A stretch of DNA of 64,000 bases from Desulfobacterales bacterium (lineage in GTDB: Bacteria; Desulfobacterota; Desulfobacteria; Desulfobacterales; UBA11574), in NCBI GenBank assembly GCA_035529735.1, contig DATKWE010000023.1, forward strand, positions 332 to 64,331. Reading direction: 5' to 3'. Positions 25,015 to 55,931 of this stretch are shown piece after piece. A model generated the notes under the pieces. That model did no database searches. It worked only from the letters and a program-made list of their open reading frames with translations, and had not been told where the DNA came from. Both the position numbers and the translations under genes were made by a program. Within the stretch, counting starts at the first letter, position 1; each line of letters opens with the position of its first letter.

Positions 25015-25839
25015 TCACTTTAAAATTCTCAACCGATGGGTTTCTTTTAATTTCTCCCAGAGTTTTTCTAAAATCACCCAGGACGCATCGGTCTCATTGA
25101 GCGTGTCGTTGCCCGAAACCGTCATGCAAGATTCAAACAACAGTCTATTAACCCCGTTTCGCAACAACTGGTCTTTTATATATCGACCTAAAGACACATC
25201 GAGTTGGGCCAATTCCTCTCTTTTTAAATTTGCCAATTGCACGCTATCTTGCAAGTGCATTTCTGATATTAATTTTACGACAGCTTCCTCAACGGTTCTG
25301 GGAGGGATAAGGCCTTTGTCATAATAATCCGATGGATCGTCATCACTCAAAGGTTCACCGGGTTTAGTTTTGACCAACCCCAGTAATATTGAACCTTCGA
25401 CAATGTCCATGGTGTCTTTGTAAATGGTGGAATCTTCGCTGGCCCTTGAACCCGTCACGTTCAGAACTTCGATGTTGTTTTCCAAGACCCAAGTGTTTAT
25501 CTTGGATGCGATGACAAACGTTGAGCTTTCTTTTAAATCCACGTGCAGACACGGACGGCGATGTTTATCTGCCATCTTCCGGCTGTATTCAGCACCGCCG
25601 GTCGGTTCTCCATGGGAGATTATCACCGTCCCGTCAGAATCGATAATATTCTGTTCAATCCGTTGTTTATAGCCGGCGGTGGGCAATTCTTTCAGTTGAT
25701 ATTTTGCAGGCACTATCCCGCTTTGGGTTTTACGGCCTTTCTGAATCCACCCGCCATGGGGAAATCCCAGTTTAATGGCAACATCCAATGCAGCCTGGTC
25801 TGCACCGATTTGACCGCCGGAAATGATTTTTCTAATCAC
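25015..25839 (-). CDS. SLOG-superfamily protein (MoCo-carrier/YpsA-like) with an unassigned C-terminal ~120-aa helical domain
   Basis: The N-terminus IISGGQIGADQAALDVAIKLGFPHGGW...VLNVTGSRASE is the MoCo-carrier-like SLOG pattern. GTG start with SD GGAGGA. Confidence 0.7.
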   Translation of the reverse strand: MIRKIISGGQIGADQAALDVAIKLGFPHGGWIQKGRKTQSGIVPAKYQLKELPTAGYKQRIEQNIIDSDGTVIISHGEPTGGAEYSRKMADKHRRPCLHVDLKESSTFVIASKINTWVLENNIEVLNVTGSRASEDSTIYKDTMDIVEGSILLGLVKTKPGEPLSDDDPSDYYDKGLIPPRTVEEAVVKLISEMHLQDSVQLANLKREELAQLDVSLGRYIKDQLLRNGVNRLLFESCMTVSGNDTLNETDASWVILEKLWEKLKETHRLRILK

Positions 25840-35930: not shown

Positions 35931-36115
35931 GGCGCCATTTCAAAACCTTCCGGCGAGAGATTTTTGACGCTTTTGCCGAAAAGTGCTTAGCAAAGCGTCG
36001 CATAAAATTTTGTGCTGTTTGAGGGTAATCGCCCGAGTTCTAAGAATTTATCACAGCGAGCTTAGCGCTTTGCAAAAGGCTCAAACCAACGAATGGGAGG
36101 TTTTGAAATGGCGCC
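35931..36115. repeat. 185-bp imperfect palindrome abutting the LOG stop codon
   Basis: The terminal arms GGCGCCATTTCAAAACCT (35931-35948) and AGGTTTTGAAATGGCGCC (36098-36115) are perfect 18-mers. The inner halves remain recognisably inverted copies (GCTTTTGC...AAAGTGCTTAGC versus GCTTAGCGCTTT.GCAAAAGG). Confidence 0.85.
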
Positions 36116-36765
36116 TACAAAATAATTACTTTCTGTACGGCTTTGACAATTTCTTCAGGGTCATCCATGATCTGCAGAATTTCAAGATCTTCCGAAGATA
36201 TCCGTTTTTCACCAAGCAACTTGTCTTTTATCCAGTCGATAAGCCCTGCCCAGTATTCCGAGCCCACCAGAATTAACGGAAAAGGCTTTATGCGACGGGT
36301 TTGAATCAGCGTGACCGCTTCAAACAGTTCATCCAGGGTGCCGAAACCACCGGGAAGGATAATATAGGCACTGGCATATTTGATGAACATGACTTTGCGG
36401 ATAAAAAAGTATTTAAAGTCGAGTTTAACATTTGCAAAAGGATTCGGTTCCTGCTCAAACGGAAGAATAATATTCAGCCCAACCGATGTGCCCCCTGCAT
36501 CTGCGGCACCCTTGTTGGCTGCTTCCATAACACCTCCGCCCCCGCCGGTGATAACAGAAAAGCCGTTTTTTGCAAAAAGCTCCGCTATTTCTTGAGCTTT
36601 CTTATAAACAGCATCATTCGGTTTAATTCTTGCCGAACCGAAGATGCTCACGGCAGGCCCTAAATCATGGAGGGTATCCACCCCTTCAACAAACTCTCCC
36701 ATGATCTTGAAAAGCCGCCAGGGTTCCCCTAGCGTTAAATCGTCAACAACAAACTGTTTTTCCAT
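36115..36765 (-). CDS. LOG-family (TIGR00730-type) nucleotide phosphoribohydrolase
   Basis: GGGGGVMEAANKGA and PGGFGTLDELFE motifs. Start moved to ATG 36765 (MEKQFVVDD...). Confidence 0.85.
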   Translation of the reverse strand: MEKQFVVDDLTLGEPWRLFKIMGEFVEGVDTLHDLGPAVSIFGSARIKPNDAVYKKAQEIAELFAKNGFSVITGGGGGVMEAANKGAADAGGTSVGLNIILPFEQEPNPFANVKLDFKYFFIRKVMFIKYASAYIILPGGFGTLDELFEAVTLIQTRRIKPFPLILVGSEYWAGLIDWIKDKLLGEKRISSEDLEILQIMDDPEEIVKAVQKVIIL

Positions 36766-36818
36766 TTTTATCCGCGACTCACTTTGATATCGACATACAG
36801 CCGACAGGCCTAAACTGC

Positions 36819-37037
36819 TCACGTCCCCCCGTTAAATCCGATGGTAACATCATCCTGATCCACAATGACCGGAACCTTGCGTATACCGTCGGAATATTTC
36901 AGCATGGTCTTCATTTGACCAGGATCCGTCTTAACGCTAAAGTAGTCGACCGCCCTGCCCTGCTTGGCAAAAGCTTCACGAGCTTGATTGGTATAGGGTC
37001 AAGTGTCTTTGCCGAAAATCAATATTTTATCAGCCAT
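36819..37037 (-). CDS. Glutaredoxin-like protein with an in-frame UGA (candidate selenocysteine) at the active site; not in the ORF track
   Basis: Hand translation gives MADKILIFGKDT-U-PYTNQAREAFAKQGRAVDYFSVKTDPGQMKTMLKYSDGIRKVPVIVDQDDVTIGFNGGT*. The TGA is at 37001-36999. SD GGAGGGAGGA. A small hairpin begins 13 nt after the TGA. Confidence 0.55.
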
Positions 37038-37151
37038 GGGTCCTCCCTCCCTAAGCTATAATTAATACCCGAGTACAATAAAAAATAATTTCTTGCAATT
37101 TCAGACTTTTGCAATTAATAGTCAGAAAATCACTAACAGCTATTTAATCTT

Positions 37152-37238: not shown

Positions 37239-37520
37239 ATGAACAAATCTGATAACAGGCTTTCAAAGAGTGTTACCATTACAAACGATCTTGGCCTTCA
37301 CGCAAGATCCGCAGCTCAGATAGCAAAACTCGCCCAAAACGTAAAATCAAAAGTGTGGATCATAAAGGACGGAGAAAAGGTGGATGCCGCCAGCATCATC
37401 GACATTCTTACGCTGGCCTGTGCCAAAGGATCAAAAATTACTTTAAAAATTGACGACCAATCGGATCTTGATATTTTAAACGATATCACCCAGCTGATTG
37501 AAAGCGGCTTTGGAGAATAA
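37239..37520 (+). CDS. ptsH: Phosphocarrier protein HPr
   Basis: GLHARSAAQIAKLA carries the active-site His; 93 aa. Confidence 0.9.
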   Translation: MNKSDNRLSKSVTITNDLGLHARSAAQIAKLAQNVKSKVWIIKDGEKVDAASIIDILTLACAKGSKITLKIDDQSDLDILNDITQLIESGFGE

Positions 37521-40208: not shown

Positions 40209-41975
40209 GTGGATATATTATCGAAAATGAAAGAACGTAGTGAAAAAATTCCAGATCCTAAAGAAATCGAAAAGGAGATCGGCGATTTTCTGGCGAAAAA
40301 ATTCGGCGGCAACGTTAAAATGATAACGCCAGTGGTTTTACCCCAGAAAGTCAGCACCGAAACGGCCGAAAAATCTGAAAAAAAAGAAAAAAAGATTAAT
40401 TTTAATTTAAAGCCCGAAGAACTCATCTCCTTTCTCGACCAGTATATCGTTAAGCAGGATAACGCCAAAGCGATTCTGGCAACAAAAATATGTACCCATT
40501 TCAACCGAATAAAACGAGCGGAAAGCGGTTCTGAAGAGACCAATGACATGGTCGGCCACATCAAAAACAATATACTGATGTTCGGCCCCACCGGTGTTGG
40601 CAAAACGTACATCATCAAGCTGATCGCCAAAAAAATCAATGTCCCTTTTGTCAAGGGTGACGCCACCAAATTTAGCGAAACCGGTTATGTGGGCGGTGAT
40701 GTTGAAGATCTTGTCCGTGACCTCGTAAGGGAAGCAGACGATGATATCAAACTGGCTCAATATGGTATCATCTACATCGATGAAATCGACAAAATTGCAT
40801 CCGGCCGAAATATCATCGGTGTTGATGTCTCCCGATCCGGCGTCCAGCGCGCGCTGCTAAAACCCATGGAAGAGACCGAGGTCGATTTAAAAGTACCCCA
40901 TGATCCTATTTCCATGATTCAGGAGATCGAACGGTTTCGTAAAACAGGCAAACGGGATAAAAGAACTGTCAATACGAGCAAAATACTGTTTATTATGAGC
41001 GGAGCCTTTGGCGATTTGCCCCGAATTGTTAAAAAACGGGTTGCCGCACAGGAAATCGGCTTTGGCGCGCACATTAAAAACCCTCAGGATGATGTGGACA
41101 TCCTTAAACAGGCAAAGGCAGAAGACCTCATAGAATTCGGATTTGAATCTGAATTTGTGGGACGGCTTCCGGTGAGGGCTGTCTTTGAAAAATTGACCGA
41201 AGATGACCTTTTCGAAATCCTGAAAAACCCCAGCAACCCGATAATTCTCGGCAAAAAACTCGATTTTGCGGCGTATGATATCGATATAAAATTTGAAGCC
41301 ACGGCCCTTAAAATTTTAGCGAAAAAGGCCTTTCAAGAAAATACCGGTGCAAGGGGGCTCGTCAGTGCAGTTGAAGGGGCACTGCTTGTGTTCGAAAAGA
41401 AATTTCCGTCATGCAACATCAAAAAATTTCCGGTGACCCGCTCTGTGGTTGAAGATCCCGAAAGGTCTATTGAAAAAATACTCGCAGTGTCAGATCACGG
41501 CCAATTAAATGAAACGTATGAGAAACTGTTTCTTGAAGAAAAGGAATATCTTAAACAGTATTTAAACCTAAACAAGAAAAATCTATCCGAAAAATACGCG
41601 TTGACGCTTACACCTTCGCGCATTGAGGTGGTGGCTTCATATTACGCAAATCACATCATGGATATTGAAAGGGTCATCAAAAAGATCAAATCCTTTTATG
41701 ATGACATTAAGAAAATGGAATTATACTTTTATAAAAATCACGACATCAACATTGTCATGGAAGATGATGCCATTGATTACATTATTGAACAGTTTGAAAA
41801 TTACGCCTACAACCCTGAAGCATTTTACGATCATCTGACAACAGATTTTGAATATGGACTCAAACTGGTTCAAGAAAAAACAGGTAAAAATCGTTTCTTC
41901 ATAACCAAGAATGCGCTATTGAATCCCGAATCTTTTATAAGCAGTCTCATTCAGAACAAGTTAAGTGTCCCCTAA
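40209..41975 (+). CDS. ClpX-like AAA+ unfoldase lacking the N-terminal zinc-binding domain, with a ~190-aa C-terminal extension
   Basis: Walker A GPTGVGKT, Walker B IIYIDEIDK, IGF-loop-like QEIGFGA. The N-terminus has no Cys cluster. The start (GTG 40209 or ATG 40227) is uncertain. Confidence 0.8.
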   Translation: MDILSKMKERSEKIPDPKEIEKEIGDFLAKKFGGNVKMITPVVLPQKVSTETAEKSEKKEKKINFNLKPEELISFLDQYIVKQDNAKAILATKICTHFNRIKRAESGSEETNDMVGHIKNNILMFGPTGVGKTYIIKLIAKKINVPFVKGDATKFSETGYVGGDVEDLVRDLVREADDDIKLAQYGIIYIDEIDKIASGRNIIGVDVSRSGVQRALLKPMEETEVDLKVPHDPISMIQEIERFRKTGKRDKRTVNTSKILFIMSGAFGDLPRIVKKRVAAQEIGFGAHIKNPQDDVDILKQAKAEDLIEFGFESEFVGRLPVRAVFEKLTEDDLFEILKNPSNPIILGKKLDFAAYDIDIKFEATALKILAKKAFQENTGARGLVSAVEGALLVFEKKFPSCNIKKFPVTRSVVEDPERSIEKILAVSDHGQLNETYEKLFLEEKEYLKQYLNLNKKNLSEKYALTLTPSRIEVVASYYANHIMDIERVIKKIKSFYDDIKKMELYFYKNHDINIVMEDDAIDYIIEQFENYAYNPEAFYDHLTTDFEYGLKLVQEKTGKNRFFITKNALLNPESFISSLIQNKLSVP

Positions 41976-42004: not shown

Positions 42005-43183
42005 ATGATCGGAATATCTAAATTGTACTGCGGAACTGTCGAGCCATCGGATGCCCTTCGTTATGGAAGAATGTCATCTAAATTACCGTCTCATCTTCTA
42101 CAGTTTTCCATCGACAAACGGCCTGTGGTGGTCTGGAACATCACCCGGCGATGCAACTTAAAATGCGTACATTGCTATGCCCATGCCAAAAACATCCCAT
42201 TTGACAACGAGCTTTCAACCACCGAAGGAAAAAATTTAATCGACGATCTCGCAGAATTTGGCGTTCCGGTAATATTGTTTTCCGGCGGTGAACCTCTGGT
42301 CCGAAAAGACCTCCCGGAACTTGCAGACTATGCCGTCAAAAAGGGCATGAGAGCTGTTATATCGACCAACGGAACACTGATAACACCTCAAACAGCTCGA
42401 ACACTCAAGAACATCGGCCTTTCCTATGTCGGCATCAGTCTTGACGGAATGGAAGAGATCAATGACCGGTTCAGAGGGGTCAAAGGGGCTTTCAGATCTG
42501 CTTTGGAAGGCATTGAAAACTGTAAAAAGGCCGGCATAAAAGTTGGGCTACGCTTTACCATCAACAAATCGAATGCCGGACAGATTTCGGAAATATTCAA
42601 CCTCCTTGAAGAGATGGATATTCCAAGGGCATGCTTTTATCATCTGGTATATGCCGGTCGGGGATCAGAGCTTGTAAAAGAAGATCTTTCCCATGAGGAA
42701 TCCCGAAAAGCCGTCGATCTTATCCTGGATCTTACGAAACAGCTCCATGACAAGGGAGATCTCAAAGAGGTTCTAACCGTTGACAATCATGCGGATGGAC
42801 CCTACCTTTATTTACGGCTGCTCAGAGAAAATCCTGAACGTGCACGGGAAGTTCTCGAACTTCTCGAAATGAACCAGGGCAACAGTTCCGGAATAGGAAT
42901 CGGCTGCGTAAGCTGGGACGGCGAGGTCTATGCCGACCAGTTCTGGCGCCATTACAGTTTCGGCAATGTCAGGAATCGGCCGTTTTCTGAAATCTGGACC
43001 GACACCTCTGATCCGCTGATGAAAAAACTCAAAGAGAAGAAAAAGTACGCCAAAGGAAAGTGCAAGACATGCCGATGGCTGGACATTTGCGCCGGCAATT
43101 TCAGGGTTAGATCCGAGGCTGTAACCGGTGATATGTGGGCACCGGATCCGGCGTGTTATCTGACAGACGAAGAAATAGGTTGA
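42005..43183 (+). CDS. ahbC: Radical SAM protein, NirJ1/AhbC-like (alternative haem biosynthesis)
   Basis: CNLKCVHCYA cluster motif, N-terminal LYCG...SDALRYG, C-terminal Cys-rich SPASM-like tail. Neighbour of hemB. Confidence 0.7.
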   Translation: MIGISKLYCGTVEPSDALRYGRMSSKLPSHLLQFSIDKRPVVVWNITRRCNLKCVHCYAHAKNIPFDNELSTTEGKNLIDDLAEFGVPVILFSGGEPLVRKDLPELADYAVKKGMRAVISTNGTLITPQTARTLKNIGLSYVGISLDGMEEINDRFRGVKGAFRSALEGIENCKKAGIKVGLRFTINKSNAGQISEIFNLLEEMDIPRACFYHLVYAGRGSELVKEDLSHEESRKAVDLILDLTKQLHDKGDLKEVLTVDNHADGPYLYLRLLRENPERAREVLELLEMNQGNSSGIGIGCVSWDGEVYADQFWRHYSFGNVRNRPFSEIWTDTSDPLMKKLKEKKKYAKGKCKTCRWLDICAGNFRVRSEAVTGDMWAPDPACYLTDEEIG

Positions 43184-43261
43184 GATCTATGCAAAGCTTC
43201 CCCTTTTCACACGTTCTGCGCTTGACCTGCCTGCCCCGTAGGTCTGGCAGATCGTACCGGG

Positions 43262-43361
43262 GTGGAATGCCTGCCCAATGAAATGTTTACCCCGTGGAAT
43301 GCGAAGCCTATTCCTCTGGGGCAACGCATATTTCATCGGGGCGGAGCCTATTCCTCTGGGG
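43262..43361 (+). repeat. Short dispersed/tandem repeats in the ahbC-hemB spacer
   Basis: GCG(A/G)AGCCTATTCCTCTGGGG occurs at 43301-43321 and 43341-43361 (20/21). GTGGAATGC occurs at 43262 and 43294. ATGAAAT/ATTTCAT are inverted. Confidence 0.85.
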
Positions 43362-43438
43362 TCAGACTCAGTTTTTAACCCACCACCGAACTTTGGCAAG
43401 TTAATCCTCAAAACACCTAAGATGAAATAGGAGTTGTT

Positions 43439-44416
43439 ATGCTTTTCCCAGATTACAGACCCAGGCGGTTACGGCAGAGTGATGCGTTCCGTCGTATGAT
43501 TCGTGAAACGAAACTTTCGGTAGACGACCTTATACTTCCACTTTTTGCCGTTCACGGTAAAGGGGTCAAAAACCCTATCGATTCGATGCCCGGCCACTAT
43601 CAGTTGTCCATAGATCATCTTGTGAAAACATCAAAAAAGGCATACGAACTCGGAATCCCTGCCATAATGCTTTTTGGACTTCCCGACAAGAAAGATCCCC
43701 TGGCAACCCGGGCTTACGCCAAAGACGGCATTGTTCAAAAAGCGACACGCGCCGTAAAAGATAAGATACCCGACCTCGCCGTTATCACCGATGTCTGTCT
43801 GTGTCAGTACATGGATCACGGCCACTGCGGCATTGTGGAGGGCCAGGTCATCGACAACGACGCCACCCTCGATCTTCTTGCCAGAACCGCCCTGTCTCAT
43901 GCTCAGGCCGGTGCAGATATGGTGGCACCTTCGGATATGATGGACGGCCGTGTGGCTGAGATTCGGAATATCCTGGATGAAAACGTTTTCAGCAACATAC
44001 CCATAATGTCTTATGCAGCCAAATACTGTTCCGGATTTTATGGACCGTTTCGTGATGCTGCCGACTCGCCGCCTAAGTTTGGAGATCGTCAGACGTATCA
44101 GATGGATCCTGCCAATGCGCTGGAAGCTATCCGGGAAGTAACCATGGACATTGAAGAAGGGGCCGATATCATCATGGTAAAGCCTGCGCTTCCTTATCTT
44201 GACATTATCTGCCGGGTCCGAGAAGAGATAGATCTTCCCTTGGCCGCTTATAATGTCAGCGGTGAGTTTGCAATGATAAAGGCCGCCGACAAAATGGGAT
44301 GGATAGACGGCCATCGAGTGATGATGGAAGTCCTTACGTCAATTAAGCGCGCCGGAGCCGATATGATTCTGACCTATTTTGCCATTGAAGCTGCACAAGC
44401 ATTATCATCACAGTAA
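43439..44416 (+). CDS. hemB: Porphobilinogen synthase (ALA dehydratase), Zn-type
   Basis: 325 aa with the Cys-rich metal site [14 protein letters not shown] and the active-site region SYAAKY. Confidence 0.95.
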
Positions 44417-44420
44417 TGCC

Positions 44421-45527
44421 ATGACAAACACGTATAATACATCGGCCCCTCGATCCCACCCCCACGGTGAAAAAAAAGGGACCGCGCTGCGCCTTGTCGC
44501 CTGGGAAACCACGCGAAACTGCAACCTTGCCTGTATGCACTGCCGTGCATCGGCCACACACGGCCCGTTCAGCGGGGAACTCGACACCGATGCATCGTTC
44601 CGCCTCCTGGATCAGATCTCACACGTCGGAAAGCCGATAATTATTCTGACCGGCGGAGAACCCCTTTTGCGGCCGGATATTTTCGATATCGCAAGGTACG
44701 GCACAAAAAAAGGGCTCAGGATGGTCATGGCGCCCAACGGCACGCTGATTACTGAAAAATTTGCCAAACAAATGGCGGATTCCGGCATTCAAAGAATCAG
44801 CGTCAGCCTGGATGGTGCCACCATAGAAAGCCATGACAGATTCAGAGGGATAGACGGTGCATTTAAAGGTGCACTTCGCGGCATCAAACTGGCAAAAGAA
44901 GCCGGGGTAGAATTTCAAATCAACACAACCATTACAAAAAAAAATCTTAAGGAAATCCCTGAAATTCAGGAACTGGCCATAAAACTGGGCGCAGTTGCCC
45001 ACCATATTTTTCTTTTGGTTCCAACCGGCCGCGGAAAATATATTGTGGATCAGGAAATAACCGCGGCAGAATATGAACGCACATTAAACTGGTTCTATGA
45101 CCAGAGGGAGAAGTCCCCTTTGCAGCTCAAGGCCACATGCGCGCCGCATTACTACCGCATCCTCAGGCAACGGGCAAAGCAGGAAGGAAAAGCGGTTACG
45201 TTCAAAACACACGGGATGGATGCCCTCACCCGAGGATGTCTGGGCGGTACAGGATTTTGTTTCATTTCTCACCGGGGAATTGTTCAGCCGTGCGGCTTCC
45301 TCGACGTCAATTGCGGGGATATTACGAAAACATCTTTTGCAGACATCTGGAACGGTTCAGACACCTTTTTATCTTTACGCAATTTCAATAATCTAAAGGG
45401 TAAATGCGGAAGATGTGAATTCAGAAAGGTGTGCGGCGGCTGCAGGGCTAGGGCGTATGAAGCGACCGGTGATTTTTTGGCTGAAGAACCCCTCTGTGAT
45501 TACCAGCCGTTTTCCGGCAACCCATAA
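44421..45527 (+). CDS. ahbD: Radical SAM protein, NirJ2/AhbD-like (haem synthase of the alternative pathway)
   Basis: CNLACMHCRA plus C-terminal SPASM Cys motifs (GKCGRCEFRKVCGGCRARAY). Start moved to ATG 44421, 4 nt after the hemB stop. Confidence 0.7.
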   Translation: MTNTYNTSAPRSHPHGEKKGTALRLVAWETTRNCNLACMHCRASATHGPFSGELDTDASFRLLDQISHVGKPIIILTGGEPLLRPDIFDIARYGTKKGLRMVMAPNGTLITEKFAKQMADSGIQRISVSLDGATIESHDRFRGIDGAFKGALRGIKLAKEAGVEFQINTTITKKNLKEIPEIQELAIKLGAVAHHIFLLVPTGRGKYIVDQEITAAEYERTLNWFYDQREKSPLQLKATCAPHYYRILRQRAKQEGKAVTFKTHGMDALTRGCLGGTGFCFISHRGIVQPCGFLDVNCGDITKTSFADIWNGSDTFLSLRNFNNLKGKCGRCEFRKVCGGCRARAYEATGDFLAEEPLCDYQPFSGNP

Positions 45528-54623: not shown

Positions 54624-54643
54624 GTTTACGATCAATCAGGGTT
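54624..54643 (+). repeat. Copy c of the dispersed 20-mer (GTTTACGATCAATCAGGGTT, 19/20)
   Basis: One T>C change relative to copies a and b. It abuts the stop codon of the Grx-TrxR gene. Confidence 0.9.
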
Positions 54644-55931
54644 AAACATTAGGGTTTATTGTCTTTAAAAATTCTCGAATCATCAAAGCCGCACTTGCCC
54701 CCTCACCTGCGGCACTTGCCACTTGCTTGGTGCTCTTGTCTCGCACGTCCCCTGCAGCAAAAATCCCGGGTATACTCGTCTCCAATATGTGAGGGTCTCG
54801 ATCATCATAACCCTTTGGCCGCTGACCACCATGCAGCAGGTCGTGGCCGGTTACCACAAAGCCCCATCGATCCAGCCGAACCTGGCTTCTTTTAAGAAAT
54901 CCGGTATTTGGGGTCAGTCCGATAAAGATAAAGGCACCGTTTACCGGCAATTCGTCTTCTGAACCGGTCTGATTGTTTATCAGCCGAAGTTTTTTAAGTT
55001 TAAAATCCTCCCCCACGAATGCTTTGACGTCCGTATTCCATCGCACATCAATTTTTGGGTTGCTGAAAACGCTGTCCTGGATGATCTGGGTGGCTTTGAA
55101 TCGATCACTTCGCACCAGTATGGTCACATGTTCTGCAAACTTGGTTAACAGCAAACTCTCTTCGGCAGCACTGTTGCCGCCGCCGATGACTGCAACCTGC
55201 GCGCCGGTGTAAAAAGGGCCGTCACACGTAGCACAAAAATGCACCCCGGCGCCAAGATATTCATTTTCGCCGGGAACGTTCAGGCGCATATAACGACTTC
55301 CTGTTGTAATCAACACAGCCCGAGCGCTATACGTTTGGCCGTCTCCGGTTTTTACACAGTGATAATTGTGGTGCTGGTAGAGTTCTACGACCTCTTGGGC
55401 CTGCAACAACTCGACGCCGAATCGTTCGGCTTGCAGACGTAATCGCCGGGAGAATTCGATACCGGCCACGCCGTCCGGAAATCCGGGCATGTTATCCAGC
55501 TTTTCCGTGCCGGCAGCTTGTCCGCCGAAGGCTGCACGTTCAATAACCAGCGTGTCGATGTATTCACGCCCCGTGTACAGCGCTGCGGTTAAACCCGCAG
55601 GTCCACCTCCCAGAACGATCAAATCATAATGACTGCGACTGGCGGAGGTCTTTAATCCCAGTTTGGCCGCAAGTTCGGCGTTGCTGGGCTCCACCAGAAA
55701 AGACCCGTCAGCAAAGACAATGGTGGGGATAATGCGCTTTCCCTTGTTGGTCTCCATCACGAATTCTTCGGCCGCTTTGTCCGTTTCAATATCGATCCAG
55801 CTGTAGGGGATCTGGTGCTCGCCCAGAAACTGTTTGCTCTGCCGGCAATCCGGACACCAGTGGGCGCCGTAAACCGTAATCTCGGATTTTGGCATGATAG
55901 ACCGCTTTGATTTCTTCACGTATCCTTCCAT
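54642..55931 (-). CDS. Glutaredoxin-like domain fused to thioredoxin-disulfide reductase
   Basis: N-terminal WCPDC thioredoxin-fold domain, then TrxR: GGGPAGLTAALY, redox CATCDG, GGGNSAAEE, AAGDV. The start among 55931/55919/55895 is uncertain. Confidence 0.85.
   Translation of the reverse strand: MEGYVKKSKRSIMPKSEITVYGAHWCPDCRQSKQFLGEHQIPYSWIDIETDKAAEEFVMETNKGKRIIPTIVFADGSFLVEPSNAELAAKLGLKTSASRSHYDLIVLGGGPAGLTAALYTGREYIDTLVIERAAFGGQAAGTEKLDNMPGFPDGVAGIEFSRRLRLQAERFGVELLQAQEVVELYQHHNYHCVKTGDGQTYSARAVLITTGSRYMRLNVPGENEYLGAGVHFCATCDGPFYTGAQVAVIGGGNSAAEESLLLTKFAEHVTILVRSDRFKATQIIQDSVFSNPKIDVRWNTDVKAFVGEDFKLKKLRLINNQTGSEDELPVNGAFIFIGLTPNTGFLKRSQVRLDRWGFVVTGHDLLHGGQRPKGYDDRDPHILETSIPGIFAAGDVRDKSTKQVASAAGEGASAALMIREFLKTINPNV

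Follow-up and report, generated by a model that had tools for sequence, protein, structure and literature searches.

The window, by which we mean the whole 64,000-nucleotide stretch of Desulfobacterales DNA analysed here, very probably encodes on its minus strand a 75-residue thioredoxin-fold (glutaredoxin/NrdH-like) selenoprotein of UXX-star family 1 that contains two selenocysteines (Sec), each UGA being recoded via a stem-loop of its own, as judged from the sequence and its homologues. The locus is a real glutaredoxin-like gene that standard gene callers miss. Its corrected coding sequence, 36810..37037 (-), comprises 75 codons and a TAG stop (36810..36812) and begins at an ATG (37037-37035), 3 nt 5' of which lies the Shine-Dalgarno-like GGAGGGAGGA (37041..37050). 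UGA no. 1 is codon 13 (36999..37001), where Sec would open the active-site motif U-P-Y-T; after 59 sense codons without a stop, the same frame arrives at UGA no. 2, codon 73 (36819..36821), where Sec would stand three residues from the C-terminus. The sequence from there on (36821-36810) continues with GCA GTT TAG, and the C-terminus reads GGT-U-A-V. Because UGA no. 2 is followed by exactly two sense codons and TAG, the feature spans 37037..36810, and its translation is MADKILIFGKDT-U-PYTNQAREAFAKQGRAVDYFSVKTDPGQMKTMLKYSDGIRKVPVIVDQDDVTIGFNGGT-U-AV, 75 amino acids with two Sec. The original prediction had placed the ATG, the Shine-Dalgarno sequence, the in-frame TGA at 37001-36999 and the 59 stop-free codons after it correctly; its start and first TGA stand, but the 72-codon, single-Sec protein ending in GGT that it described does not, the second Sec codon having been mistaken for a stop. 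The gene was also rightly said to be absent from the ORF track, and a standard ORF listing omits it too; its two UGA codons, read as Sec, make callers skip it. Recoding of each UGA would proceed through its own downstream stem-loop, with a loop 18-19 nt after the UGA and G then U at loop positions 2-3, the first stem-loop lying within the coding sequence and the second in the 3' untranslated gap before a LOG-family gene.

With both U replaced by C, the product scores 108.4 bits against the NCBIfam profile NF041114, "UXX-star selenoprotein family 1" (cut-off 72), aligning with positions 1-70 of 70; without the C-terminal three residues the score is 101.3 bits over positions 1-67 of 70, so that C-A-V adds 7 bits. 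The gene is therefore a member of this curated family, with which it shares its length (about 70-75 aa), a glutaredoxin-like fold and a C-terminal U-x-x-stop, no feature excluding membership. The name UXX-star refers to this C-terminus, Sec followed by two residues and a stop. The novelty implied in the original prediction fails because the family is already curated in NCBIfam and cited in the literature, and for the same reason nothing here is categorically new biologically. The glutaredoxin-like layout that it had recognized is borne out by the Pfam Glutaredoxin model PF00462 (E = 1.7e-10 for the 72-residue version with U replaced by C), and Sec at the first active-site Cys agrees both with the NF041114 score above cut-off and with the presence of Cys in place of the TGA in 7/127 homologues.

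As to function, Sec13 would be at the nucleophile position of the U-P-Y-T active site, in which Thr stands instead of the usual second Cys, and Sec73 would be carried (G-G-T-U-A-V) on a tail replacing the usual C-terminal helix. In glutaredoxins, a G-G loop lines the active site. Because the tail starts right after this loop, we infer that Sec73 may resolve or relay from Sec13. We tentatively favor a role of Sec73 as the resolving or shuttling partner of Sec13 in thiol/selenol-disulfide exchange, via a diselenide or, in forms with Cys at position 13 (Cys-13), a selenenylsulfide, and the two Sec residues suggest testable diselenide or tail-shuttle chemistry. On the other hand, the selenols might act as metal or metalloid ligands (e.g. 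Hg, As, or Cu), the protein then being a chaperone or scavenger and not a redox pair. Metal binding is the alternative given in a recent review (PMC13188914), and both the Thr in place of the second active-site Cys and the flexible tail of the structural model would suit it, but no metal-resistance or transport genes are conserved beside the gene, and the fold, the cis-Pro and the active-site positions are those of a thiol-disulfide oxidoreductase, which makes ligand binding an unlikely function. This alternative concerns function only and agrees with both the gene model and the recoding.

The gene model itself rests on comparison with homologues. A protein search returned 145 relatives, of which 54 are Cys-13 forms, most of them ending at GGT, i.e. 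cut at the C-terminal TGA, and 63 are metagenome gene calls with W at both TGA positions (GKDT-W-P[YFH]T ... G-x-W-x-V). A genome search added 18 loci, mostly in Desulfobacterales MAGs, with both TGAs, the two following codons and the stop present in 16/16 complete copies; one genome locus showed 100% identity over the 59-residue segment between both TGA codons. The closest public MAG contig (L001, JAQYVT010000002.1) shows a synonymous divergence of about 0.08 from the window gene, whose tail reads U-A-V versus U-N-V. Searching metagenomes with the degenerate DNA pattern [FY]GKDT-[TGA/TGC/TGT]-P[YF]T yielded 120 loci. In the 127 complete genes, codon 13 appears as TGA 120 times, as TGC 5 times and as TGT twice, and the C-terminal TGA followed by two codons and a stop is found in 127/127 (126/126 unique genes). 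With TGA at codon 13 in 120/127, the double-Sec form is the common one: in this unbiased DNA-pattern sample, Sec-13/Sec-73 far outnumbers the Cys-13 form, by about 120 to 7, and the over-representation of Cys-13 in protein databases arises because callers cannot see other forms. Ten further Cys-13 genes were fetched, giving 17 unique Cys-13 and 119 Sec-13 genes, and both TGAs are conserved in position over these about 136 homologous genes, whose protein sequences diverge by as much as about 50% (codon 13 being Cys in 17). Cys-13 and Sec-13 homologues, both of which the original prediction had proposed to look for, are present. A Sec/Cys pair among homologues exists for UGA no. 1 (17 Cys-13 versus 119 Sec-13 unique genes); for UGA no. 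2, the about 136 genes included no Cys-73 form and hence no such pair.

Public records of Cys-13 members illustrate how the C-terminus is lost in annotation. For example, HXW08938.1 is a Cys-13 protein bearing the NCBI name "UXX-star (seleno)protein family 1" and is annotated with 71 aa, ending GGT. At the Cys-13 loci L139 (GCA_035620975.1, DASPFV010000340.1, 401-616) and L140-L148, the C-terminal TGA is followed in the DNA by two more codons, then a stop, then a hairpin resembling a SECIS. Read from the DNA, the public Cys-13 records that stop at the C-terminal TGA are short by three residues, including a predicted Sec. For annotation, this means not only that a real gene is missed by standard callers but also that family-aware public records cut Cys-13 members at the C-terminal UGA. 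Two metagenome loci, L120 and L129, begin with GKDT-TGA-PYT and then diverge, L120 running into unrelated sequence over 134 codons and L129 stopping after 30; chimeric contigs, rearrangement or decay of the copies might explain them.

Whether the second UGA is itself translated can be read from the codons behind it. The codon at +1 encodes Gly in 87/126 genes (GGC 40, GGG 38, GGA 6, GGT 3), that at +2 encodes Val in 120/126 (GTC 65, GTT 31, GTG 22, GTA 2), and the one at +3 is a stop in 126/126. Because the amino acids at +1 and +2 are kept through synonymous change, both codons are translated. The alternative, in which the TGA at 36821-36819 is a real stop, the protein has a single Sec and ends at GGT, and the hairpin beyond is a terminator or an unrelated element, can appeal to the use of TGA as a normal stop in the host genome (12/44 genes) and to the public annotation of HXW08938.1. 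Against it, a stop exactly two codons further on would be expected by chance in only about 4% of cases, Gly and Val are each kept via all four of their synonymous codons, the NCBIfam profile has the three extra positions and gains 7 bits with them, and the hairpin keeps a constant spacing from the TGA, its loops in the family are rich in G and it lacks a T-run. We therefore consider a genuine stop at codon 73 highly improbable. It is of note that the true stop after U-x-x is itself TGA in 59/126 genes (loci L019-L148), placing a Sec-UGA and a stop-UGA two codons apart, with the spacing to the hairpin, about 19 nt for the former and about 10 nt for the latter, as the only visible difference between them.

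The hairpin in question, SECIS-2 (36788..36806 (-)), lies in the gap before the LOG gene and consists of a 7-bp stem, UGUCGGC/GUCGAUA, closed by the loop UGUAU, which begins 19 nt 3' of UGA no. 2; the window reads UGA GCAGUU UAG GCC [UGUCGGC] UGUAU [GUCGAUA], with an energy of -7.9 kcal/mol. This second SECIS hairpin, which is intergenic and much the stronger of the two, was absent from the original prediction. In the published bSECIS model, a 3-9 nt loop, a 4-16 bp stem, G within the first two loop positions and a spacing of 16-37 nt are combined with an MFE <= -7.5 kcal/mol (PMC13188914), and SECIS-2 conforms to all four constraints (7 bp, loop UGUAU, 19 nt, -7.9 kcal/mol). When 124 homologues, the window's own copy left out, were scanned for a perfect stem of at least 6 bp with a loop starting 17-22 nt after the UGA, such a hairpin was present in 84.7%, compared with 8.0% of dinucleotide shuffles, 7.6% in DNA 80 nt further downstream and 9.7% in the middle of the coding sequence. 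The stem sequences are unrelated between clades, and the loops are UGUAU, GGC, GUC, GGA, GGUC, CGUGC and similar. Folded alone, the window sequence made neither this hairpin nor the one after UGA no. 1 significant. A terminator was also considered for the second hairpin and rejected: the homologues have no T-run 3' of it, no terminator-like site was called between the selenoprotein gene and the LOG gene, and the spacing from the UGA is fixed.

The W-type calls mentioned above (P0001-P0063, from ENA, JGI and Logan metagenomes) have W at residues 13 and 73 and stem from short contigs, and some of them run beyond the real TGA stop into spurious tails. They look like a gene-calling artefact that puts false Trp-containing sequences into protein databases. 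Taken at face value, these many calls would speak for TGA being reassigned genome-wide, to Trp (code 4) or to Gly (code 25), or for near-cognate tRNA read-through independent of the Sec machinery. However, TGA is an ordinary stop in the host genome, ending 12/44 family-supported genes of the window, the natural variants of codon 13 are Cys and never Trp or Gly, and hairpins are tied to each UGA; the W calls would instead reflect short contigs on which a table with TGA as Trp lets the caller span the gene. Reassignment, contradicted by stop-codon usage, was thus rejected as extremely improbable, and a scan of the window for other genes split by TGA gave none that was convincing. That a glutaredoxin gene is decaying here, with the TGAs as nonsense mutations, a possibility raised with the original prediction, has nothing beyond the in-frame stop codons in its favor and was rejected on comparative grounds as scarcely credible, both TGAs being kept at the same positions in >120 diverged genes, the start codon and Shine-Dalgarno sequence being intact, and purifying selection acting on both sides of TGA no. 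1 (pN far below pS over codons 3-12, 5' of UGA no. 1; dN/dS of about 0.08-0.3 for codons 14-72 against the window gene, in unsaturated comparisons).

Returning to the two-Sec reading, the candidate SECIS-1 inside the coding region (36971..36985 (-)) has a 5-bp stem, AAGCU/AGCUU, and a loop, CGUGA, beginning 18 nt 3' of UGA no. 1; it spans codons Q-A-R-E-A-F. This is the hairpin AAGCU-CGUGA-AGCUU at 36985-36971 that the original prediction had pointed out; it is present, and compensatory changes preserve it within the clade of the window gene. The hairpin is weak (-3.1 kcal/mol, z = -0.43), and its 5-bp stem, its loop and its 18-nt spacing fit the bSECIS model, the energy threshold being reached only with flanking pairs. 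The expectation that a hairpin after the first UGA would be conserved in orthologues held within the A-R-E-A clade, to which the window gene belongs, but not across the family: RNAalifold found no consensus structure in 115 sequences following UGA no. 1, the five SECIS-1 pairs hold in only 60% of cells family-wide, and under synonymous-codon permutation the MFE of the stretch following UGA no. 1 did not stand out (z = -0.29 versus -0.46 and -0.30 elsewhere in the gene). The stems are clade-specific, the A-R-E-A clade having N-G-C-Y [CGKGA] R-G-C-N and other clades shifting the stem, as in CUCGUAG [GGA] CUACGAG, and the window's clade was therefore analysed separately in a sample of 36 sequences. 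Here, pair 18-30, formed by two synonymous third positions, is paired in 34/36 (GC 11, AU 8, GU 8, CG 5, UA 2) and pair 21-27 in 36/36; pairing amounts to 88% versus 76% in shuffles, none of which reached 88% (0/500), and to 24-57% with the partner slid.

The loop carries a further signal. The Arg codon at loop positions 1-3 is CGU in 99 and CGG in 20 of the 119 Sec-13 genes, with CGC and CGA at 0, whereas the 17 Cys-13 genes have CGC 10, CGG 3, CGU 2, CGA 1 and one Leu codon (CTC) (Fisher p ≈ 1e-12). Outside this position, no CGN Arg codon is used less in the same Sec-13 genes than CGU (19/390). The published rule for the bSECIS loop is G, then G or U (PMC13188914). The bias being found in Sec-13 and not in Cys-13 genes, the loop constraint appears only together with the upstream UGA and constitutes a clear synonymous-site signature of a SECIS tied to it. 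We take SECIS-1, on these sequence patterns, to be probably functional but minimal. A wider proposal, which we regard as rather doubtful, is that the natural form is usually a double selenoprotein with an intramolecular Sec13-Sec73 diselenide, a very low-potential couple rare in nature, and that its first Sec is inserted through a minimal SECIS of 4-5 bp embedded in the A-R-E-A codons, of which the G-U/G of the loop would be recognized rather than the stability of the stem. If this minimal-SECIS, double-Sec reading is true, nothing but the hairpin spacing would distinguish Sec-UGA from stop-UGA in the 59/126 genes that end in TGA.

Downstream of the selenoprotein gene and co-oriented with it, as had been reported, lies a LOG/TIGR00730-family gene (36115..36765 (-); TIGR00730 150 bits, cut-off 96). 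Its start codon at 36765 leaves a gap of 44 nt in place of the 53 nt originally given, and the two genes are probably co-transcribed. Twenty homologous loci have a LOG gene directly 3' of the family gene in the same orientation, and 11 have a divergent HPr gene on its 5' side, all of them from the window's clade; in the window, the annotation places the HPr gene at 37239-37520, followed by ptsI. The neighbors in other clades are an ABC ATPase, an OPT-like transporter and a membrane protein, and neighbor-gene profiling across clades revealed no conserved redox partner beside the gene. About 18 kb from the selenoprotein gene, 54642-55931 (-) encodes a 429-residue protein in which a glutaredoxin-like domain (active site W-C-P-D-C) is fused to a pyridine-nucleotide disulfide oxidoreductase resembling thioredoxin reductase (C-A-T-C), and for which a role as a reductase for small redoxins is conceivable. 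The LOG gene is one of two SLOG/LOG-superfamily genes in the window, the TIGR00730 gene at 36115-36765 (-) and a circularly permuted YpsA SLOG-family gene at 25015-25839 (-). The region 42005-45527 (+) contains AhbC (12,18-didecarboxysiroheme deacetylase, 757.8 bits), a HemB/ALAD gene and a further radical SAM gene and has the appearance of a cluster for alternative, siroheme-dependent heme biosynthesis, in keeping with a Desulfobacterales host that resembles sulfate reducers. A 588-residue ClpX-like AAA+ protein encoded at 40209-41975 (+) scores below the ClpX equivalogs (311 versus a cut-off of 359 and 292 versus 371), matches over residues 48-419 only and may be an atypical ClpX relative. 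Annotation of about 47 ORFs with Pfam and NCBIfam revealed none of the Sec machinery, the 64-kb window containing neither selA, selB, selD nor selC (tRNA-Sec), and Rfam at gathering thresholds matched only a tRNA-Arg there, which carries no weight for or against SECIS elements. The closest loci being from Desulfobacterales MAGs, the lineage gives indirect support for Sec machinery in the host: Desulfobacterales count among the bacteria richest in selenoproteins, with Desulfobacterota at the top of that list (PMC13326102; PMC13188914).

UXX-star families 2 and 3 and the HUGP/GUXX-star fusion selenoproteins likewise have a small glutaredoxin-like domain ending in Sec-x-x-stop, and the window protein stays below the cut-off of each (NF041211, 51.5 bits versus 100; NF047338, 44.3 versus 97; NF045501, 48 versus 325). 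A 2026 review lists UXX-star family 2 (one Sec, GxGU motif) and the HUGP/GUXX-star fusion, with credit to Haft and Tolstoy 2025 (PMC13188914). The scores are also below the cut-offs for Grx3 (TIGR02181, 34 bits versus 90), in which the motif is C-P-Y-C rather than U-P-Y-T, for YruB-type proteins (33 versus 88.55) and for NrdH-redoxin (TIGR02194, 22.3 versus 85.75). With classical Grx3, NrdH and YruB-type proteins, the window protein shares the thioredoxin fold, the active site at the N-terminus of helix 1 and the cis-Pro (V-P) loop but not the second active-site Cys. An AlphaFold model of the homologue P0070 (Cys at residue 13, Leu in the tail position), built from a 76-row alignment, predicts (pLDDT 83.5) a b1-a1-b2-a2-b3-b4 core with no C-terminal helix and a disordered tail (residues 70-74, pLDDT <50). 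The best Foldseek matches of this model are glutaredoxins and NrdH, with TM scores of 0.74-0.80, including the A. fulgidus glutaredoxin (TM 0.80), C. oremlandii cGrx1, E. coli Grx3 and NrdH. By sequence, the closest solved structure is cGrx1 of Clostridium oremlandii (E = 5e-5), at an identity of only about 25%, a native selenoprotein glutaredoxin with a U/C-P-x-C motif (PDB 7c10/7c12; PMC7642778). Like the window protein, cGrx1 has Sec at the first active-site position; unlike it, cGrx1 has 84 residues, a dithiol-type U/C-P-x-C motif and no C-terminal Sec, whereas the window protein has U-P-Y-T and a predicted second Sec in its tail, and the P0070 model is without a C-terminal helix. In its flexible C-terminal Sec, the tail may also be compared with that of mammalian thioredoxin reductase, where G-C-U-G forms a C-terminal redox tail; the likeness would be functional only, and no homology is claimed. 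In the same functional sense, the proposed pairing of Sec13 with Sec73 may recall yeast Grx5, in which Cys117 follows the GG motif as a resolving residue behind the GG loop, and the UxxU diselenide couple of SelL proteins.
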